Below, in pieces: positions 2,943-23,124 of a stretch of 32,000 nt of DNA. The stretch lies in assembly GCA_964536865.1 (NCBI GenBank), contig CAZHYN010000013.1, forward strand, positions 1-32,000, given 5' to 3'. Position 1 is the first letter of the stretch. Each line of letters opens with the position of its first letter. Made by a program: the position numbers and the translations under genes. Under the pieces are notes generated by a model that saw only the letters and a program-made list of their open reading frames with translations, had not been told where the DNA came from and made no database searches. This DNA is from an uncultured Planctomycetia bacterium. GTDB taxonomy: Bacteria; Omnitrophota; Gorgyraeia; Duberdicusellales; 4484-171.

Positions 2943-4163
2943 ATGAAGTGCTTTGATAAGAAGATTTTAGCTTTGATACTTGCAGGAGGAAAGGGAGAAA
3001 GACTTTACCCTCTTACTCTAGAGAGAACTAAACCTTCTGTTCCTTTTGGAGGTAAATACAGGATTATTGATTTTTCTTTGAGTAATCTCATAAATTCGGG
3101 GATATATTCTATTTATGTATTAGTGCAATATAAATCCCAATCTCTAATTGAACATATAAGAACTACCTGGAGCATTGCCGGTCTTCCCTCTGAGTATTTT
3201 ATAACCGTTGTTCCTCCACAAATGAGGAAAGAAGAGGTTAAAGATTGGTATAGAGGCACAGCAGATTCTATTTATCAGAATATAAACCTTATCTATGACT
3301 ATAAGCCTGATATTGTTGTAATTTTAAGTGGTGATCATATCTATAGGATGGATGTGAGAGAAATGATAAATTACCATCTTGAAAAGAAAGCAGAGCTTAC
3401 GCTTTCTACGATTCCTGTGGATGCAGAAGAAATTTCTCAATTAGGTATAGTAAAAATAGATGAGGAGAGACAAGTTTTGGATTTTAGAGAAAAACCTACA
3501 AAAGCAGAGGGTAATTATTTAGCTTCTATGGGTAACTATGTATTTAATACTCAGTTGTTGATAGAGGCCTTGGAGGGGGATGCTCATAGAAATTCAACTC
3601 ACGATTTCGGTAGAGATATTATTCCTAGTTTGATTAAAAAAGGAGCTAAGGTGTATGGTTACGATTTTTCCACCAACAGAATTCCTGGTATAAAAGGTTA
3701 CGAAAGAGGGGCTTACTGGCGAGACGTAGGTACGATAAAGAGTTACTGGGAGGCAAATATGGATCTTTTAGGAGAAAAACCGGTCTTGGATTTAGATAAT
3801 CAGCAATGGCCTATACATGCTTCCAATCTTTATTGTCCTCCTGCCTATATAGCAGAGTCTGAGGTTATAAATTCCTTAGTTTGCGAAGGCTCAAAGGTAA
3901 CGAAAGCGAAGATTAAAAACTCTATTCTAGGTCGGGGAGTAAAAATAGAGAAGGAGGTAGAGATAGAAGATTCTATCGTGATGGATTTTACTCATATAAA
4001 AAGAGGGAGTAGAATTAAGTCAGCAATCATAGATAGGTTTAATACTATAGAAGAGAATAGTTCTATCGGCTACGATAGAAATAAGGATGTAAAAAATTAT
4101 TATGTTGATTCCTCAGGGATAGTGGTAGTTAAACGGGGCCTAAGAAGAACCTTTCTTTCTTAA
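2943..4163 (+). CDS. glgC: Glucose-1-phosphate adenylyltransferase
   Basis: ILAGGKGERLYPLTLERTKPSVPFGGKYRIIDFSLSNLINSGI is the canonical GlgC N-terminal motif. The C-terminal part looks like a left-handed beta-helix. ATG at 2943 is preceded by GGAAGGAGAG (2925..2934), so I prefer it to the GTG at 2922. Confidence 0.9.
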   Translation: MKCFDKKILALILAGGKGERLYPLTLERTKPSVPFGGKYRIIDFSLSNLINSGIYSIYVLVQYKSQSLIEHIRTTWSIAGLPSEYFITVVPPQMRKEEVKDWYRGTADSIYQNINLIYDYKPDIVVILSGDHIYRMDVREMINYHLEKKAELTLSTIPVDAEEISQLGIVKIDEERQVLDFREKPTKAEGNYLASMGNYVFNTQLLIEALEGDAHRNSTHDFGRDIIPSLIKKGAKVYGYDFSTNRIPGIKGYERGAYWRDVGTIKSYWEANMDLLGEKPVLDLDNQQWPIHASNLYCPPAYIAESEVINSLVCEGSKVTKAKIKNSILGRGVKIEKEVEIEDSIVMDFTHIKRGSRIKSAIIDRFNTIEENSSIGYDRNKDVKNYYVDSSGIVVVKRGLRRTFLS

Positions 4164-15901: not shown

Positions 15902-16621
15902 ATGAAGAGGAGAACTACTGATTGTTTTTATTTTGTTATTCGTAGGATTATTGAGTTTTTGGTCTTAGGGATGTTTCTTTTGTTGTTATTTGGAATTCTC
16001 TGTGAGAGAGGGGTGTACTGTAAAGAAGATAATGATAGCATGGCGATTGCTAATACCTACTACTTAAAAGGTAAAGAGTTTCTTCTTAAAGGAGAGTATC
16101 AGAAGGCTGACGAAGCTTTTAAGAAAGCGGAGAAGATTTTAAATAAAAAATCTTCTAAAAAAAAGGAAAGGCTCTCTCTAAGAAAGTCGGATTCCAAAAG
16201 AAGGAAGATTTCTTCTAAGATATCACCCTCTAATTTAGAGGCAGAGAGAAGGAAGATAGAGACTATTCTGGAGGCAGCAAAACAAGCTTACTTTGAAGGG
16301 AATTTAGAGTTAGCTTTAAGGCTGTATACCAGAGTGTTAAGAAAGTATCCTACCGATGCTGATCTTTACTACAATTTAGGAGTTATTTATCTAAAAAAAG
16401 CGGATTACCTTAGTGCTGCTGAGGAATTTAAAAGAGCAATTCTTTTAGATCCTAGCGATGCTGATGCTTACTATAATTTAGGAGTGATCTATGAGAATTT
16501 TCTCAATGATAAGGAAAAGGCTATTAGTCACTACCAGAGTTATTTGAAATTGTGCACTTCTGAAGAAGAAAAGAGGGAGATTAAAAGATGGATAGAGAGG
16601 CTTAGAAGGGAAGGACGATGA
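15902..16621 (+). CDS. Membrane-anchored TPR-repeat protein (possible PilF/PilW/Tgl-like secretin pilotin)
   Basis: TPR repeats (ADLYYNLGVIYLKKADYLSAAEEFKRAILLDPSDADAYYNLGVIYENF). Hydrophobic N-terminus with Cys residues but no canonical lipobox. Lies between the secretin block and pilB, with an ATGA overlap onto pilB. Confidence 0.7.
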   Translation: MKRRTTDCFYFVIRRIIEFLVLGMFLLLLFGILCERGVYCKEDNDSMAIANTYYLKGKEFLLKGEYQKADEAFKKAEKILNKKSSKKKERLSLRKSDSKRRKISSKISPSNLEAERRKIETILEAAKQAYFEGNLELALRLYTRVLRKYPTDADLYYNLGVIYLKKADYLSAAEEFKRAILLDPSDADAYYNLGVIYENFLNDKEKAISHYQSYLKLCTSEEEKREIKRWIERLRREGR

Positions 16622-18435
16622 ATGACGAGGAGTTAAAAGATATTCTTTTGCAAGCGAATTTACTCACTCCTCAGGATATTGAGAGGGCAATTGAGGAGAC
16701 TAAAAAGCTTAAGCGCCCTCTAGAACAGGTAATTTTGGATATGCGCCTTTTAGACAGAGAAGTTCTTTACAGAACCATAGCTCAAAAACTAGAAGTAGAG
16801 TATAAAAAAATAGATAATTTAACTGTTCCTAAAGAGCTGTTAAGAATATATCCTGAAGATTTAGCCCGTTCTACTAAGTCTGTACCTTTGTTTATAAAAG
16901 AAGGGACTCTTCATGTTGCTTTAGCTAATCCACAAGATTTTACTTTAACTGATCAGATTCAGTTATTTACCAACTATCCTCTCTTTGTGTATCTCTCTTC
17001 CCCTCAGGAGATTGAAGAAGCTATTAACCGTATTTATCGTGAAGAGAAAGAGGAGATACTTTTTACTGATTTAGAAACACCTCCTACGGTGAGCCCTAAA
17101 AAAGAAGAGGAGAGTAAGCCTTTAAGTGAGACTACCTCTATCATAAAGGTGGTAGATTTACTTATCACTCAAGCAGTAAGAGACAGAGCTAGTGATATTC
17201 ATATTGAGCCAGAGGAAAGTGTTACTAGGATAAGATTTAGAATAGATGGAATTCTTCACGAAGTACCTCCTCCTCCTAAAGAGTGGGAATCAGCTATAAT
17301 TTCTCGGATAAAAGTCTTAGCAGGGATGGATATTGCAGAGTCCCGTTCTCCTCAGGATGGTCATTTTCAGGCCACTATAGATGATAAACTTATTGATTTC
17401 CGTGTTTCTACCTTACCTACTATCCATGGGGAAAATGTAGTATTAAGGCTGTTGGATACTGCTTCCGTAGCTATAGGTTTGGAAAAGTTAGGGTTTACCA
17501 CCCCTCAAGACTTAAAGAAGTATGAAGAGCTAATTACCAAACCTTATGGAATAATTCTTTCTACAGGTCCTACAGGATGTGGTAAGACTACCACTTTATA
17601 CTCTGCTTTAATGAGAATAAATACCATGGATAAAAATATTATTACTTTAGAAGATCCTGTGGAGTATCGTTTAGGTTTAATAAGGCAGGTTCAGGTTAAT
17701 CCTAAAGCAGGAATTACCTTTGCTAATGGTTTGAGAGCAATCCTTCGTCAGGACCCCGATGTAATAATGGTAGGAGAGATAAGAGATTTAGAGACTGCAC
17801 GAATGGCTGTTCAAGCAGCGTTAACAGGACATCTAGTATTTTCTACCCTTCATACTAACGATGCTCCCAGTGCAGTCGCTCGCCTGATAGATATGGGAGT
17901 AGAGGACTTTTTGGTTGCTGCGTCTTTAATAGGAGTTATGGCTCAGAGACTGGTGAGGGTTATCTGTCTTAAGTGCAAAGAAGCGTATAAACCCTCACCT
18001 ACCATACTTAAGAAGTGGCGGATAGAAAAAGAAGATGTGGAAGTTTACCGAGCTGAAGGGTGTCCGGAGTGCAAAGGAACTGGTTACCGAGGTAGAACAG
18101 GAATATTTGAACTAATGGTGGTTGATGATGAAATAAAAGAGATGATTAATCAGGGAGCTTCCACAGTAGCTTTAAGAAAAAAAGCTCAAGAGAAAGGAAT
18201 GCGTCTTCTTTGGGAAGATGGGAGAGAAAAAGTTTTGAGAGGGATCACTACCTTTGAGGAAGTAGCTAGGGTTTGTGAGGAACAAATCGAAGTTAAACCT
18301 GCAAAGATAGAAGTAAAGCCTTACTTAGGAAAAGAAATAGAAGTAAAAAGAGCTACTGTTAGAGAGGTGAAAATTGACCCTAAGGCTTTAGAAGAGTACC
18401 GTGCCCGTATTGCTCGCTGGATGAAGAATGAGTAA
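16618..18435 (+). CDS. pilB: Type IV pilus assembly / T2SS ATPase (PilB/GspE family)
   Basis: N-terminal T2SSE_N-like domain. Walker A GPTGCGKTT, Asp box, Walker B DPDVIMVGEIRD, His box. Tetracysteine motif CLKC...CPEC. About 50 extra C-terminal residues. Confidence 0.92.
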   Translation: MNDEELKDILLQANLLTPQDIERAIEETKKLKRPLEQVILDMRLLDREVLYRTIAQKLEVEYKKIDNLTVPKELLRIYPEDLARSTKSVPLFIKEGTLHVALANPQDFTLTDQIQLFTNYPLFVYLSSPQEIEEAINRIYREEKEEILFTDLETPPTVSPKKEEESKPLSETTSIIKVVDLLITQAVRDRASDIHIEPEESVTRIRFRIDGILHEVPPPPKEWESAIISRIKVLAGMDIAESRSPQDGHFQATIDDKLIDFRVSTLPTIHGENVVLRLLDTASVAIGLEKLGFTTPQDLKKYEELITKPYGIILSTGPTGCGKTTTLYSALMRINTMDKNIITLEDPVEYRLGLIRQVQVNPKAGITFANGLRAILRQDPDVIMVGEIRDLETARMAVQAALTGHLVFSTLHTNDAPSAVARLIDMGVEDFLVAASLIGVMAQRLVRVICLKCKEAYKPSPTILKKWRIEKEDVEVYRAEGCPECKGTGYRGRTGIFELMVVDDEIKEMINQGASTVALRKKAQEKGMRLLWEDGREKVLRGITTFEEVARVCEEQIEVKPAKIEVKPYLGKEIEVKRATVREVKIDPKALEEYRARIARWMKNE

Positions 18436-18460
18436 AGTTAACTTTTTGTTAGTTTAAGCT

Positions 18461-19723
18461 ATGGGTATCTATATCTATAAAGCAGTTGATGCCAAAGGTA
18501 AGATAGTAAAGGGAAAGATCGAAGCACCTACAGAGACTGATGTTTCTATCCAATTAGCTAAGCTAGGGTATATTCCTATAAGTATAGGATTTAAGGGAGA
18601 AAAAGCTCCTCCTTTAAGAGAACGGTTATTTAAAAAAAGATTTCGTAGAACTTCTTCTCATGCTTTAGTAGTATTTACTCGGCAATTTGCTACTATGGTG
18701 AAGGCAGCGGTTCCCATTGTTGAGGGGTTAAAGGTACTGGCTGAGCAAGCCGAGGATGATAATTTAAAAGAAGCTCTTTTCAGAGTAATTGAAGATATAG
18801 AGGAGGGAAAGAAGCTATCCGAAGCCTTAACAAAACATCCCGGAGTATTTAGCCAGCTCTACGTTAATACTGTGGTAGCAGGGGAGGTAGGAGGAGTGTT
18901 AGATAAAGTTCTTTTAAGGTTAGCAAATGTTTTAGAGGAAGAACAAGAGATAAAAATGAATATGAAATCTGCACTAAGATACCCTATAATAGTAATGGTA
19001 GCTCTCATTATTGCTGTAATTATTCTCTCTGTAAGAGTGGTACCTACTTTTGCTAAAGTTTATTCTAGGATGAATATAAGCTTACCTCTTCCTACTCGGA
19101 TAATGATTCTTATGAGTAATTTTTTTCTCGGCCCCTGGAGAGACAGTTCTAACTTTTTGTTAAAAATTCTATGGTTTATGATTCTTCTTGGTATAGCTGT
19201 AGGGGCATTTTTATCTTTTAAATTATTCATAACTACTCCTGGAGGAAGACGTTGGTGGGATAATGCTAAATTTAGAATGTATATATTTGGGAAAATCTAT
19301 AAAAAAATAACTATGCTTAGGTTTGCTTCAATGCTCAATGTGCTTTATCAGGCAGGACTTCCCATTCTTAATATTCTGGATGTTGTAAAAATCACTATTG
19401 GGAACGTGGTGTTAGCTAAAGAGTTGGATAATGTAAAAAGGTTTGTAGCTGATGGTAAAGGAATTTCTGGAGGTCTTTTAGGTAGCAAATTATTTCCCCC
19501 ACTAGTTTCTTATATGGTCTCTGTAGGAGAAAAGGCAGGGGCATTATCTACTATGCTTGATTCTCTATGTGAGTACTATTCCTTAGAAGTAAGAACTTCT
19601 CTAAAAAACTTAACCTCTTTGATTGAGCCTATTATGACTTTAGTTTTAGGGGTAGTGATAGGAGGAATGGCTTTAGCGATATTCCTGCCTATGTGGAATT
19701 TGATTTCTATTATCCGAAGATAA
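18461..19723 (+). CDS. pilC: Type IV pilus / T2SS inner-membrane platform protein (PilC/GspF family)
   Basis: 420 aa with two repeated GspF-type cytoplasmic domains (FTRQFATMVKAAVPIVEGL; MLRFASMLNVLYQAGLPILNIL) and three TM segments. Directly follows pilB. Confidence 0.9.
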   Translation: MGIYIYKAVDAKGKIVKGKIEAPTETDVSIQLAKLGYIPISIGFKGEKAPPLRERLFKKRFRRTSSHALVVFTRQFATMVKAAVPIVEGLKVLAEQAEDDNLKEALFRVIEDIEEGKKLSEALTKHPGVFSQLYVNTVVAGEVGGVLDKVLLRLANVLEEEQEIKMNMKSALRYPIIVMVALIIAVIILSVRVVPTFAKVYSRMNISLPLPTRIMILMSNFFLGPWRDSSNFLLKILWFMILLGIAVGAFLSFKLFITTPGGRRWWDNAKFRMYIFGKIYKKITMLRFASMLNVLYQAGLPILNILDVVKITIGNVVLAKELDNVKRFVADGKGISGGLLGSKLFPPLVSYMVSVGEKAGALSTMLDSLCEYYSLEVRTSLKNLTSLIEPIMTLVLGVVIGGMALAIFLPMWNLISIIRR

Positions 19724-20533
19724 GTGATTTTTGGTTTTTTAATAGGAATAGTTATTCTAATAATTTATATTATTATCTCTTCCTGGTGGTGGAGAAGAAA
19801 ATTACATTTTTATGTTAAAAAATCTCGAGAAGAGGAAGCTAGACTCATTCATCTAGAGAAAATGGCCTCTTTAGGAACTTTAGCTGCTGGAGTAGCTCAT
19901 GAGATTAATAATCCTTTGACCTTTCTTCTTACTAATCTAGGACTCCTTTCTCACTATATAAAAGAGGAGAAGAGAGTCAAAGAAGAGTTACAAAAAGAAA
20001 TAAGTGTAATTTTAGATGAGTGTAACGAAGGAGTGAATAGAATAAAGAGGATTGTTCAAGATCTGCTTTCTTTTTCTCACCGCTCACGAGGTAAAAAAGT
20101 TTCTACAAACATCAATGAGTTGCTGGATGTAAGTATAAGAATTCTATGGAATGAGATAAAGTATAAGGTTGATATAGTAAAAAATTATGAAGCAGTAACT
20201 CCTCTTCGGATAGATCCTAATCAACTAAGTCAAGTATTTTTAAATATAATCATCAACGCTACTCATGCAGTAAAGAATAAAGGGACAATTTTTCTTTCTA
20301 CCCAAGAGAATGAGAAGGAATTTATCATTAAGGTTTCTGATACAGGAGAAGGAATTCCTAAAGAAGTTCTTCCCAAGATTTTTGAACCTTTCTTTACTAC
20401 TAAGGGAGGTACGGGTTTAGGACTCTATGTAAGCAAAAATATTGTGGAGAATATGGGGGGTAGGATAGAAGTAGAAACTCAATTGGGAGAGGGTAGTACA
20501 TTCACTATTTTTCTGCCTAAAGTTAAAAAATAA
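19724..20533 (+). CDS. Minimal histidine kinase (one TM, HisKA, HATPase_c; no recognisable sensor domain)
   Basis: H-box GVAHEINNPL, N-box NIIINATHA, G1 DTGEGI, G2 GGTGLGL. The GTG start abuts the pilC stop with no gap. Confidence 0.85.
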   Translation: MIFGFLIGIVILIIYIIISSWWWRRKLHFYVKKSREEEARLIHLEKMASLGTLAAGVAHEINNPLTFLLTNLGLLSHYIKEEKRVKEELQKEISVILDECNEGVNRIKRIVQDLLSFSHRSRGKKVSTNINELLDVSIRILWNEIKYKVDIVKNYEAVTPLRIDPNQLSQVFLNIIINATHAVKNKGTIFLSTQENEKEFIIKVSDTGEGIPKEVLPKIFEPFFTTKGGTGLGLYVSKNIVENMGGRIEVETQLGEGSTFTIFLPKVKK

Positions 20534-20554
20534 TTTCTTTAAGAGAAAAGTGCT

Positions 20555-20908
20555 ATGGGAGTAGAGAAAAGAAAGTATCCTAGGGTTAAGGTTAAGTTTT
20601 CCGTAGAGTATAGGGGGAAGAATGTTTGGCAAAACGCTGAGATTGACAATATCTCCAGAGGGGGGATGTTTATTGTTACGGAGAAGATAGAGCCACCAGG
20701 AACAAATATAGAGCTTATTTTTGAACTAGGAGAAAGTAAGAGGAAGATCCAAGCTCAAGGAGTAGTGGTGTGGACACGTACTCAATCTCAGCACAATCAT
20801 GAAGGTAGGCTTCTCCCTCAGGGTATGGGAGTCCAATTCACCAAAATTTTCCCTGGAGAAGCAGAAAATTTTTTGGCTGATTTAATAGAGAAGTGGAGAG
20901 ATGGATAA
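20555..20908 (+). CDS. Single-domain PilZ protein with intact c-di-GMP-binding motifs
   Basis: RxxxR = RKYPR and (D/N)xSxxG = NISRGG, at the canonical spacing near the N-terminus. 117 aa. Confidence 0.85.
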   Translation: MGVEKRKYPRVKVKFSVEYRGKNVWQNAEIDNISRGGMFIVTEKIEPPGTNIELIFELGESKRKIQAQGVVVWTRTQSQHNHEGRLLPQGMGVQFTKIFPGEAENFLADLIEKWRDG

Positions 20909-21473
20909 ACATACTATTCTCGTTGTAGATGATGAGCCTAATATAGTTTCTTCCCTAAAGAGGGTTCTTGCCTCCGAGGATAGAGAGATTTTATCTGCCT
21001 ATAGTGCTGAAGAGGCTTGGAGGCTTCTTCAAGAGAAGGGAGAAGTAGAGGTAATTATTTGTGATAATAAATTACCGGGAGCCTCTGGCGTAGAATTCCT
21101 TTCCAAAGTAAAAACTGCTCATCCCCACACAGTAAGAATTCTTATTACTGGTTATCCTGATTTGACCAGTGTTGCAGAGGCAATAGATAAGGCAGGCATC
21201 TGGCGGTACCTCTTAAAGCCTGTAGAGATAGAGGAGTTAAAAACTTTAGTAAACCAGGCTTTTGGTTACTATAGGATTTTAAAAGAAAATCAAATTCTTT
21301 TTGATATCGTTTGTCAACAAGCGGAGTGGCTTAAGGTATTAAGAGAAAAGTATCCTGAGATTGTGTCCCGGGAAGTAGAAGAAGGGAAGATAATTGATAT
21401 AGAATGGAGAGAAGCTTCTGACACAGTTAGAAAATTCATAGAAAAGTACTACCTTCACAAAAAAGGAGAATGA
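20901..21473 (+). CDS. Response regulator: receiver domain plus about 70 aa of uncharacterised C-terminal extension (no DNA-binding or enzymatic output recognised)
   Basis: ILVVDDEPNI, phospho-acceptor context IICDNKLPG, ILITGY, YLLKP. Overlaps the PilZ gene by 8 nt and the next gene by 4 nt (ATGA). Confidence 0.85.
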   Translation: MDKHTILVVDDEPNIVSSLKRVLASEDREILSAYSAEEAWRLLQEKGEVEVIICDNKLPGASGVEFLSKVKTAHPHTVRILITGYPDLTSVAEAIDKAGIWRYLLKPVEIEELKTLVNQAFGYYRILKENQILFDIVCQQAEWLKVLREKYPEIVSREVEEGKIIDIEWREASDTVRKFIEKYYLHKKGE

Positions 21474-22282
21474 AAGAGTTAGAAAAAAGATTGGTAAAAG
21501 AAGGATGGGTTACCTCTGCTCAACTTATAAAAGCTAAGGAAGAGCAGAAGAAAAAAAAGAAGAAATCCTTATTCTCTGTTTTAGTAACTTTGGGATATCT
21601 AAGTGAAGAGGATATTTACCTATTCTTTGCTCAGAGTGCTCAGATACCTTTTGTAAGGCCAGGCGATTATCTTTCAGATGAAGAACTTTTTAATCTTTTT
21701 TCCGAAGACTTCTATCGGGAGCATCTTTTTGTTCCTCTCTTTAGAATAGGAAATACTCTTTACATTGGGACTGCTAATCCCCTGGATACAGAGTTTATGG
21801 ATACCTTAAGGAAGCATACTAATTTAGATATCTTTCCTCTATTTGCCTCTCCTTCTTCTATCTTAGAGGCAATAAATCGTGTATTTGGGCCAGAGAAAGT
21901 ATACTTACAGTTAGAGGAGTTAGTTAGTTTCTCTCCTTCATTAAGTATACTACCCTTAGGAAGAGAATCTGAAAGGATAGTGATAAATACACCTGTAGAG
22001 TTTAAAGTTATTGACAAGAGGATAACTTTAGCATCTTCTCAATATCTAAAGGGAACTGCTTTGAATATTTCTCAAAGTGGTAAGGGGGTAGGGATAAGGA
22101 CTTTTCTTTTTCTTCCTTCTGGAGCAAAGATTCTTCTAAAGTTTCCTTCATTCGATCCTAATTGTGAATTAGAAGCAGAGATAACCCACTGCAGAATGGA
22201 ACAAGGTTATTATTTCTTAGGAGTGAAATTTCTCCAAACAAGAAAAGATTTATTAAGATATTTATTGGAAGAAAAAAAATAA
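21470..22282 (+). CDS. T2SSE_N (GspE/PilB/MshE N-terminal domain)-like :: PilZ fusion protein
   Basis: The N-terminus LEKRLVKEGWVTSAQLIKAKEEQKKKKKKSLFSVLVTLGYLSEEDIYLFFAQSAQIPF resembles the N-terminal domain of GspE/PilB/MshE ATPases. The C-terminus carries RxxxR (RESER) and (D/N)xSxxG (NISQSG) PilZ motifs. Confidence 0.7.
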   Translation: MKELEKRLVKEGWVTSAQLIKAKEEQKKKKKKSLFSVLVTLGYLSEEDIYLFFAQSAQIPFVRPGDYLSDEELFNLFSEDFYREHLFVPLFRIGNTLYIGTANPLDTEFMDTLRKHTNLDIFPLFASPSSILEAINRVFGPEKVYLQLEELVSFSPSLSILPLGRESERIVINTPVEFKVIDKRITLASSQYLKGTALNISQSGKGVGIRTFLFLPSGAKILLKFPSFDPNCELEAEITHCRMEQGYYFLGVKFLQTRKDLLRYLLEEKK

Positions 22283-22324: not shown

Positions 22325-22354
22325 TTGACAGAGCAGAATTTTATATGTTATACT
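22325..22354 (+). promoter_or_regulatory. Sigma70-type promoter with extended -10 driving the riboswitch leader
   Basis: TTGACA 22325..22330, an 18-nt spacer containing TG (22346..22347), TATACT 22349..22354. Confidence 0.5.
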
Positions 22355-22404
22355 TAAATTGAAGCTCTTTATATTAAGGATTTATACTTTTATTATACTA
22401 CTCG

Positions 22405-22572
22405 ACAAAGGCAAACTCGTGGTAACACGAGGGCGCAAAGCCGTGCGTCCCGCTCTTTCTAAGACCCAGATTAACAGGGGTTTGAAGTTAAAGTGCATAA
22501 GGGATGCAGAGGCAGGTAAACTGCAGGATTTAACTAGAAATATGAAAAGGGCGGGATAGGCAGGTTGCCGAA
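22405..22572 (+). promoter_or_regulatory. Candidate c-di-GMP-I (GEMM-I) riboswitch aptamer with a roughly 75-nt branched insertion in the second arm
   Basis: AAAGGCAAAC (22407..22416). A 6-bp hairpin CTCGTG-GTAA-CACGAG (22416..22431, GNRA loop). GGCGCAAAGCC (22432..22442). A 10-bp helix CCCGCTCTTT / AAAGGGCGGG (22449..22458 with 22546..22555). Tetraloop-receptor-like TCTAAG (22458..22463) opposite TATGA (22541..22545). The 3' closing segment ATAGGCAGGTTGCC (22556..22569) has TTGCC complementary to GGCAA. G+C is about 50% by hand count over 22401..22570, against AT-rich flanks. Confidence 0.68.
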
Positions 22573-22593
22573 AGTAGTATTTATTTTTTATTT

Positions 22594-22640
22594 AAGCCGA
22601 ACTACTTTAGCCTTTAGGAGAGTAGTTCGGCTTTTTTGTT
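22594..22640 (+). terminator. Intrinsic terminator (probable riboswitch expression platform)
   Basis: Perfect 13-bp stem AAGCCGAACTACT (22594..22606) / AGTAGTTCGGCTT (22621..22633), running into TTTTTTGTT. Confidence 0.8.
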
Positions 22641-22658
22641 CTCCGAGAGATAAAAAAC

Positions 22659-22687
22659 TTGACTTACTCTTAAAAAGCTGATATTCT
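22659..22687 (+). promoter_or_regulatory. Possible second promoter between the riboswitch terminator and the pilin gene (TTGACT-17-TATTCT)
   Basis: TTGACT 22659..22664, TATTCT 22682..22687. Followed by SD AAGGAGG (22697..22703) and ATG 22712. Confidence 0.35.
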
Positions 22688-22711
22688 TAATAAAGAAAGG
22701 AGGTGAGTAAG

Positions 22712-23071
22712 ATGCGCAGAGGTTTTACTCTTATTGAATTAATTATGATTATCGTTATCATTGGTATTTTAGCAGCTATTGCTATCCCTAAATTTATTGA
22801 CTTAAGAACTGATGCCCAAAAGGCTTCTTGTTTTGGTAGTGCTGCAGCAATTCAAACTGCTCTTTCTAACTATTATGCCCGCCAGGCTATAAAAGGAAGC
22901 CCTGGTTTTCCTAGCACCTTACATGATACATCCTTTACTAGTGAGTATTTCACTGAAGCTACTCTTCCTGATCATCCCAAAGGATGGGATTGGGATACCT
23001 ATTATAGCAGTAATACCGGGGCTCTTCATACTGGTAAAGGGGCAGATAGCGGAGCCTGTACAAACTTTTAA
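22712..23071 (+). CDS. pilA: Type IV major pilin (T4a-like prepilin)
   Basis: MRRG-FTLIELIMIIVIIGILAAIAIPKF: short basic leader, G-1, F+1, E+5, G14, P22. Strong SD AAGGAGG 8 nt upstream of ATG 22712. The ORF-track GTG at 22703 lies inside the SD, so it is disfavoured. Confidence 0.9.
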   Translation: MRRGFTLIELIMIIVIIGILAAIAIPKFIDLRTDAQKASCFGSAAAIQTALSNYYARQAIKGSPGFPSTLHDTSFTSEYFTEATLPDHPKGWDWDTYYSSNTGALHTGKGADSGACTNF

Positions 23072-23092: not shown

Positions 23093-23124
23093 ATAAACCC
23101 CGCTTTTTTAAAAGCGGGGTTTAT
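23093..23124. terminator. Hairpin terminator after pilA, possibly bidirectional
   Basis: ATAAACCCCGC (23093..23103), loop TTTTTTAAAA, GCGGGGTTTAT (23114..23124), followed by a T-rich run on the plus strand. The hairpin also encodes the last codons and the stop of the convergent minus-strand gene. Confidence 0.7.

Follow-up and report, generated by a model that had tools for sequence, protein, structure and literature searches.

Riboswitches that bind cyclic di-GMP (c-di-GMP) and act on a pilin or motility operon through an intrinsic terminator are known from Clostridioides difficile. Here, a c-di-GMP-II riboswitch, which belongs to the unrelated class II, lies upstream of pilA1 and turns the gene ON, and Cd1, a GEMM-I OFF switch upstream of flgB, controls flagella, not pili. 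Within the GEMM-I family, only about one member in two has a tetraloop receptor in helix P1b within reach of the P1a loop. That the P2 stem varies in length was described as early as 2007 (Weinberg 2007, PMC1950547). In this study, we analysed a stretch of 32,000 nucleotides (nt; hereafter the window, meaning the whole stretch at its full length) from an uncultured bacterium that GTDB places in the phylum Omnitrophota (GenBank assembly GCA_964536865.1, contig CAZHYN010000013.1, positions 1 to 32,000). The leader of its type IV pilin gene is ~350 nt long and holds a GEMM-I riboswitch at positions 22395-22580, followed by a terminator. This element is a genuine c-di-GMP riboswitch of the GEMM-I family, almost certainly a functional one, and has a terminator as its expression platform. 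We consider it probable that a canonical c-di-GMP-I aptamer acts here as an OFF switch on the pilin gene, and that the 99-nt insertion it carries is tolerated.

Aptamer anatomy and predicted ligand

A scan of the whole window at Rfam gathering thresholds returned a single match, to RF01051 (c-di-GMP-I), at 22400-22478 with 37.1 bits (E 6e-4). This exceeds the RF01051 gathering score of 35 and is the comparison that had been proposed by a sequence-only reading of this DNA, which had called a GEMM-I-like riboswitch from the letters and their open reading frames. In this alignment, obtained with default filters, P1b is mis-closed at 22470-22478, with four non-canonical pairs. With permissive filters, applied to the stretch 22380-22660 only, the sister model RF03167 (c-di-GMP-I-GGC) aligned the full-length aptamer, 22401-22573, with 58.7 bits (E 1.3e-13). 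Both matches are much better than chance would give. The longer alignment is free of flagged non-canonical pairs, and the covariance model (CM) places ~100 nt in the loop of P1b, which bears out the proposal of a GEMM-I RNA with a large insertion in its P1b (P2) arm. Two practical warnings attach to this element. Default cmscan filters mis-closed the aptamer at a score barely over threshold, and the top-scoring Rfam model belongs to a variant family, the diagnostic base of which this element lacks. The window lies just below the RF03167 gathering score of 59, and filing it under this variant was rejected: RF03167 reads GCGAA at the one core position, equivalent to A47, that separates the two consensus sequences, and both the window and the closest relative described below read GCAAA, with the canonical A of RF01051.

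The following parts make up the aptamer.

22395-22404, plus strand: 5' strand of the outer helix P1, AUACUACUCG; 8 nt are 100% complementary to 22573-22580, and CG at 22403-22404 pairs with 22569-22570 (CM)
22407-22415, plus strand: conserved junction AAAGGCAAA (CM alignments)
22416-22431, plus strand: P1a hairpin CUCGUG-GUAA-CACGAG with a GYRA-type tetraloop
22432-22452, plus strand: GGCGC-AAA linker and P1b 5' strand AGCC-G-UGC-GUCCCG (CM alignment)
22453-22551, plus strand: lineage-specific expansion of the P1b tip, 99 nt (alignment with the short form; predicted fold)
22552-22568, plus strand: P1b 3' strand CGGGAU-AG-GCA-GGUU, then G and C22568 (no non-canonical pairs flagged)
22569-22580, plus strand: P1 3' strand CG-AA-AGUAGUAU

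The following features of RF01051 are found: P1a is capped by a GNRA loop, an AAA linker leads to P1b (CGC-AAA-GCC, 22434-22442), P1b is closed by a 3' strand, and P1 forms the outer helix. In GEMM-I RNAs this linker is virtually always AAA (Weinberg 2007, PMC1950547). The core of P1 consists of AUACUACU (22395-22402) with AGUAGUAU (22573-22580), making eight perfect pairs, to which two CG pairs are added, and within the junction G22411-C22412 pairs with G22435-C22436. P1b is formed by AGCC-G-UGC-GUCCCG (22439-22452) and CGGGAU-AG-GCA-GGUU (22552-22566) through the pairings AGCC/GGUU, UGC/GCA and GUCCCG/CGGGAU. The sequence-only reading had placed the core AAAGGCAAAC (22407-22416), the 6-bp hairpin CUCGUG-GUAA-CACGAG (22416-22431) and GGCGCAAAGCC (22432-22442) correctly, and its island of high G+C content is real (0.50 in 22400-22499 versus 0.23-0.24 just upstream). 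It had the element begin at 22405 instead of 22395, however, and missed P1 (22395-22404 with 22569-22580). Likewise, it recognised GAUAGGCAGGUUGCCGAA (22555-22572) as the true 3' half but closed it onto GGCAA, a pairing seen in the minimum free energy (MFE) fold that is not the one of the family; the 3' strand GAUAGGCAGGUU pairs instead with the P1b 5' strand AGCC-G-UGC-GUC. A terminator-like call at 22431-22450 was discarded as spurious; it lies inside the aptamer.

By CM alignment, the ligand contacts are G22410, A22437 and C22568, equivalent to G20, A47 and C92 of Vc2, with A22437 sitting in the GGCGC-AAA linker. The "GGC" in the name of RF03167 presumably denotes positions 20, 47 and 92. 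In the c-di-GMP class, G20 reads the ligand's G-alpha and C92 pairs with G-beta, and RNAs of the cyclic GMP-AMP (cGAMP) class, GEMM-Ib, have an A at position 20 (PMC6140456). Because position 20 of the window is G (G22410) and position 92 is C, c-di-GMP rather than cGAMP is the predicted ligand, although the earlier reading had held the two to be indistinguishable from the sequence. The alternative, in which 3'3'-cGAMP or some other dinucleotide would be the ligand or the switch would be of the ON type, appears very improbable to us. It could draw on the variant family RF03167 being the top model and on the association of GEMM-Ib RNAs with pilus genes in Geobacter (PMC1950547), but besides the G at position 20, the consensus G of RF03167 (GCGAA) is A here as in RF01051, and the terminator lies outside the aptamer, which means that the bound aptamer cannot sequester it.

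The 99-nt expansion of the P1b tip

The genome nearest to the window is a metagenome-assembled genome of Candidatus Omnitrophota (MAG B7_G16, QNCE01000027.1; hereafter L001), which carries a short form of the leader. Its aptamer is intact, with 68 bits against RF03167, and P1b is closed by GUCCCG-AUAUUAUAU-CGGGAU, a 9-nt loop where the window has 99 nt (22453-22551). Ten further contigs of the relative's population have exactly the same form, which thus spans at least ten samples. L001 shares with the window the promoter, P1, the anti-terminator, the terminator, the second promoter, the pilin gene and the position of the leader. It differs by an A for G22567, an A-U for the terminator pair G22596-C22631, and the 9-nt loop AUAUUAUAU. 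Outside the insertion, the aptamer core is identical at 86 of 87 positions, compared with 88-91% DNA identity in the flanking genes (90.6% in the pilin gene; the MshEN-PilZ protein is 89% identical) and 23 differing third codon positions out of 120 in the pilin, corresponding to ~19% silent-site divergence. This comparison indicates purifying selection on the aptamer core in both lineages.

The long form is found again in a contig of a separately deposited assembly (L084), where the 429-nt leader is 100% identical, so that a one-off assembly error is unlikely. A third contig that was checked for the long form (L108) ends 64 nt past the upstream gene. Here, we use "insertion" for the material that is extra relative to the short form, and no polarity (insertion or deletion) is implied. 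The two leader alleles found are each invariant and differ at 1 of 87 positions of the aptamer core. The covariation check in homologous leaders that the sequence-only reading had proposed therefore gave a compensatory change in the terminator only, namely G-C to A-U at pair 22596/22631, next to a compatible A-U to G-U change. Being near-identical save for 99 nt, the two natural alleles offer a ready-made experiment on whether peripheral arm expansions affect folding or switching.

The branched fold that had been proposed for the inserted segment is reproduced by the MFE calculation, but its extent was underestimated (22464-22540 rather than 22453-22551, as defined by the short form). In the MFE fold, CUCUUU/AAAGGG extends P1b by 6 bp. 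An internal loop containing UCUAAG and UAUGA follows, together with a hairpin at 22462-22483 (AGACCC/GGGUUU) and an inner helix, AGUUAAA/UUUAACU (22486-22492/22529-22535), which encloses two hairpins at 22494-22508 (UGCAU/AUGCA) and 22512-22524 (GCAG-GUAAA-CUGC). By eye, the 5' strand of the insertion at 22453-22460 (CUCUUUCU) is also complementary to AGAAAGG at 22694-22700, a stretch that runs into the beginning of the pilin's Shine-Dalgarno sequence; these seven pairs, one of them G-U, probably reflect no more than pyrimidine-rich facing purine-rich sequence.

Homologues of the insertion were found neither in the 32-kb window nor in 108 fetched loci, nor among plasmids and phages (blastn) or viral contigs (exact pattern). 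A search for an Rfam family nested in the insertion gave nothing credible at E up to 10, and the insertion has no tandem repeats. An internal duplication of the aptamer was rejected as its source, the direct repeat AAGGG..AGGCAGGU being not significant (17% of dinucleotide shuffles align equally well). If a small mobile element resembling a miniature inverted-repeat transposable element (MITE), or a remnant of one, had landed in the P1b loop, this would fit the clean presence or absence between two close lineages and the weakly inverted ends, CUCUUU...AAAGGG. We give such an origin very little chance: the window and the fetched loci contain no second copy, plasmids, phages and viral contigs gave no match, a target-site duplication is not apparent and tandem repeats are lacking. 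Moreover, the event may have been an insertion or a deletion.

The sequence-only reading had interpreted UCUAAG opposite UAUGA as a tetraloop receptor. In the window, the CUAA of UCUAAG begins 16 nt past CGCAAAGCC. In other long-arm GEMM-I loci with CUAA it begins 6-8 nt past CGCAAAGCC, as in 27 of 46 distinct arms that accompany a GAAA loop on the same 6-bp P1a. Judged by this geometry, UCUAAG/UAUGA would sit too high in the arm, by ~10 bp or roughly one turn of the helix, to be reached by the GUAA loop of P1a, and the window has no receptor within reach of this loop. In line with this, GYRA loops are almost never accompanied by a receptor (Weinberg 2007, PMC1950547). Instead, UCC at offset 5, paired to GGA, is present in 9 of 13 distinct GYRA-loop arms (8 of 12 if the window's own is left aside) and in 0 of 46 GAAA-loop arms. 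The window and L001 have GUCCCG/CGGGAU with UCC at offset 5 in common (22448-22450 in the window). Because GYRA loops co-occur with UCC at this offset, exactly as in these two leaders, UCC/GGA is likely the docking site of the GUAA loop and would be common to both alleles. The insertion is a lineage-specific expansion of the solvent-exposed P1b tip, beyond this docking site.

Large P1b arms are not restricted to this locus. In one metagenomic scan, the pattern AAAGGCAAA..CGCAAARCC, 100-130 nt, GGYURCCGAA matched 75 contigs (loci L009-L083) with 63 distinct arms, which is an absolute count and not a frequency among GEMM-I RNAs. The oversized arm that the sequence-only reading had found exceptional thus has many counterparts of 100-130 nt in the same position. 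About five matches are tandem aptamers rather than long arms (L012, L022, L042, L049, L058); in four of them (L012, L022, L049, L042) the second aptamer reads GCACAAAGCC (or GACACAAAGCC) in place of GCGCAAAGCC. Rods account for 27 of the 63 distinct arms, with tandem 7-8-nt repeats on the 5' strand and complementary repeats on the 3' strand. They occur in L010, L014, L016, L020, L024-L026, L031, L034-L036, L043, L052, L054, L059, L062, L074, L076 and L083, with repeats such as TGGCAGA x7 and TAGTTGC x4.7, and copy numbers vary between relatives. We know of no prior description of such rod-like heptamer-repeat P1b arms. Eleven further loci form a class, here called class A, with a conserved branched P1b arm of ~100 nt, GGAUCUAACCCAG...CUGGYAUGACAGCC (L017, L027, L040, L045, L051, L053, L064, L067, L068, L071, L072); an alignment of 10 of the 11 members shows some covariation. 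Class A usually lies upstream of a conserved 64-aa open reading frame (ORF), MTIPEAKQYVGKNCWISWTDRLGQEHSKVLQVEDLQF.... None of the metagenomic long-arm loci resembles the insertion of the window in sequence, and none precedes a pilin gene. Pattern scans of viral contigs matched one contig at any arm length. This 4.6-kb viral contig (L107, IMGVR_UViG_3300036859_000996) has two short-arm GEMM-I matches, at 1692-1765 and 3598-3671, ~1.9 kb apart on the same strand.

From its position, and by analogy with these arms, the insertion is most likely tolerated rather than required. Eleven short-form contigs combine an intact aptamer with a 9-nt loop, and 75 metagenomic contigs carry P1b arms of 100-130 nt of unrelated sequence, both of which point to dispensability. 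The P1b arm tends to grow repeatedly, which the insertion exemplifies, and we regard a functional role for the insertion as unlikely. Such a role could take the shape of a functional RNA module nested in P1b, serving as a self-docking domain, as a platform for a protein or second ligand, or as a folding timer. In one variant, the GUAAA loop at 22516-22520 would bind the receptor-like UCUAAG/UAUGA loop; in another, a timer would hold back aptamer closure until ~100 nt more had been transcribed and thereby retune kinetic sensing. In keeping with a module, none of 200 shuffles folds as well as the whole arm (z -3.9), and the motif resembles the 11-nt receptor in a U-A variant that is found at the canonical position in other GEMM-I RNAs, such as L017 and L040 (AUCUAAC...UAUGAC). 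In addition, at least one long-arm family is conserved with some covariation, which means that P1b extensions can be kept by selection. Yet the inner part of the fold is marginal (z -2.3, with 3 of 200 shuffles folding as well), the receptor register would require an A to be bulged compared with the helix of the MFE fold, and neither an insertion homologue, nor covariation, nor a matching Rfam family was found in the searches described above. The closest relative, with its 9-nt loop, is moreover judged to work, given its intact 68-bit aptamer and conserved platform. We therefore see only a small chance for a nested module and prefer a tolerated expansion.

The broader idea, that large P1b-tip expansions such as this one, the branched families and the heptamer-repeat rods are functional and constitute an unrecognised architectural layer of c-di-GMP-I riboswitches, is speculative and slightly less probable still. 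If it were true, expansions could delay aptamer closure and thereby set the ligand concentration or time window that is sensed, or they could serve as docking platforms. In that case, the expansion in the window would shift the tuning of pilin expression by c-di-GMP away from that in the sister lineage with the short form.

Terminator, promoters and the pilus locus

The elements that surround the aptamer and would convert ligand binding into control of the pilin gene are as follows.

22325-22354, plus strand: sigma-70-type promoter, TTGACA, 18 nt, TG-TATACT (11 of 12 matches, extended -10)
22594-22637, plus strand: intrinsic terminator, 13-bp stem AAGCCGAACUACU/AGUAGUUCGGCUU (arms 22594-22606/22621-22633), then six U
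22659-22687, plus strand: second promoter-like site, TTGACT, 17 nt, TG-TATTCT (9 of 12 matches, with TG)
22712-23071, plus strand: type IV (MshA-like) pilin gene, 119 aa, ATG at 22712, N_methyl motif

Both the perfect 13-bp terminator with its U run and the AGUAGU repeat able to pair with ACUACU, which the sequence-only reading had put forward as an anti-terminator candidate, were recovered. The terminator hairpin has an energy of -22.6 kcal/mol. The anti-terminator consists of AAAGUAGU (22571-22578) with ACUACUUU (22601-22608, in the 5' arm of the terminator), an 8-nt perfect complement. P1 and the anti-terminator share 22573-22578, and the anti-terminator is mutually exclusive with P1 as well as with the terminator. 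In a nascent transcript ending at 22612, before the 3' arm of the terminator is made, the two states are computed to be nearly equal in energy, at -64.2 kcal/mol for aptamer plus P1 and -64.1 kcal/mol for aptamer plus anti-terminator. This would be a balanced switch, which ligand binding could tip.

Since the terminator does not overlap the aptamer, and the bound aptamer leaves the terminator free, we infer an OFF switch in which ligand-locked P1 permits termination. Transcription would start from the promoter at 22325-22354, which is conserved in L001 and L093 and whose start is expected at ~22361-22363. Binding of c-di-GMP by G22410, A22437 and C22568 would lock P1 (22395-22404 with 22569-22580), the 13-bp hairpin and its U run (22594-22637) would be free to form, and transcription would terminate. 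Without ligand, AAAGUAGU would pair with ACUACUUU, disrupting the terminator and allowing read-through into the pilin gene. High c-di-GMP would in this model result in less pilin mRNA from the promoter at 22325-22354.

Several points weigh against the OFF switch with a tolerated insertion proposed here. The anti-terminator is short, at 8 bp, and overlaps 6 of the 13 pairs of the terminator. In addition, the MFE structure of the full leader is P1 plus terminator, favoured by ~6 kcal/mol even without ligand, and any switching would therefore be kinetic. In Vibrio, an MshEN-type ATPase uses c-di-GMP to promote pilus assembly, which makes an OFF switch on the pilin an odd neighbour. The two alleles are each invariant and thus give no covariation in either aptamer or insertion; the fold of the latter is a purely thermodynamic prediction. 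The neutrality of the insertion is argued from position and analogy, and UCUAAG/UAUGA is uncomfortably receptor-like for pure chance.

The second promoter-like site at 22659-22687 lies between the riboswitch terminator and the pilin ATG. It is conserved in L001 and has an equivalent in L093, and it could give rise to riboswitch-independent, and hence ligand-independent, pilin transcription. Such a site, conserved past the terminator, would fit the rival view that the insertion has crippled the riboswitch and left the leader as a relic with constitutive termination or read-through, the pilin being driven by the second promoter. The riboswitch is also evolutionarily labile at this locus. The leader is missing altogether from pilin relatives at 71-75% identity, and a synteny-based leader search found the riboswitch absent from MshEN-PilZ relatives at 38-55% identity. 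L093 (1-336), with 77% pilin identity, has retained both the promoter and the second promoter as well as a similar terminator (AGAGUUGAAUUACUC/GAGUAGUUCAACUCU). Between promoter and terminator, however, it reads AUACUACUCUUAAAAGGUAAG..., with no GEMM-I match and no recognisable aptamer; either the aptamer has decayed or the leader is of another kind. We nevertheless consider a crippled riboswitch improbable in the window, and more so than a nested module. The insertion lengthens the P1b helix by 6 bp without interrupting it, all core positions are intact, with 86 of 87 matching the short form despite ~19% silent-site divergence nearby, and long arms commonly occur in GEMM-I RNAs that are otherwise intact.

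This RNA precedes the major pilin gene within a cluster for an MSHA-like type IV pilus, which also includes minor pilins, PilM/N/O and a secretin. The pilin has its Shine-Dalgarno sequence GGAGG at 22699-22703 and its own terminator at 23093-23124. The name MshA derives from a member of the same 90% cluster, annotated "MSHA biogenesis protein MshA", and more distant homologues are named MshA too. An ORF at 22359-22559 (66 aa), which overlaps the aptamer, is regarded as spurious. Upstream lie an MshE-type ATPase, PilC, a histidine kinase, PilZ, a response regulator and an MshEN-PilZ protein, in this order.

16618-22282, plus strand: upstream pilus-cluster genes with c-di-GMP receptor domains
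16618-18435, plus strand: MshE-type ATPase with MshEN domain
18461-19723, plus strand: PilC
20555-20908, plus strand: stand-alone PilZ protein
21470-22282, plus strand: MshEN-PilZ protein

The position upstream of the pilin, in a locus with PilZ and MshEN proteins, is as the sequence-only reading had it. If the switch operates as proposed, a pilus locus with PilZ and MshEN proteins of its own would gain a further layer, control of the pilin by c-di-GMP at the RNA level, in Omnitrophota, a phylum that has been little studied. The MshEN-PilZ protein at 21470-22282 joins two different c-di-GMP-binding folds in a single polypeptide, and its arrangement beside PilZ, the histidine kinase and the response regulator is kept in relatives down to 38% identity.

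Comparison with known systems

Among the metagenomic long arms, L037 and L039 have in common with the window a GYRA loop, a GUCCCG/CGGGA base and a multi-hairpin arm. Some of the others are branched as well, but most have a GAAA loop with the receptor at offset 6-8, unlike the window. The GEMM-Ib RNAs of Geobacter, which sense 3'3'-cGAMP, fold in the same way and are associated with pilus genes (PMC1950547); they carry an A at position 20, where the window has G22410. Compared with RF01051 and its reference structure, Vc2 of Vibrio cholerae, the aptamer has the same junction AAAGGCAAA, a 6-bp P1a with a GNRA loop, CGC-AAA-GCC, P1b and P1, and the equivalents of G20, A47 and C92. It departs from them in its tetraloop, which is GUAA (GYRA type) and not GAAA, and at the height of the canonical receptor, where it has UCC/GGA and no receptor. 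The tip of P1b, finally, is extended by 99 nt with a branched predicted fold.

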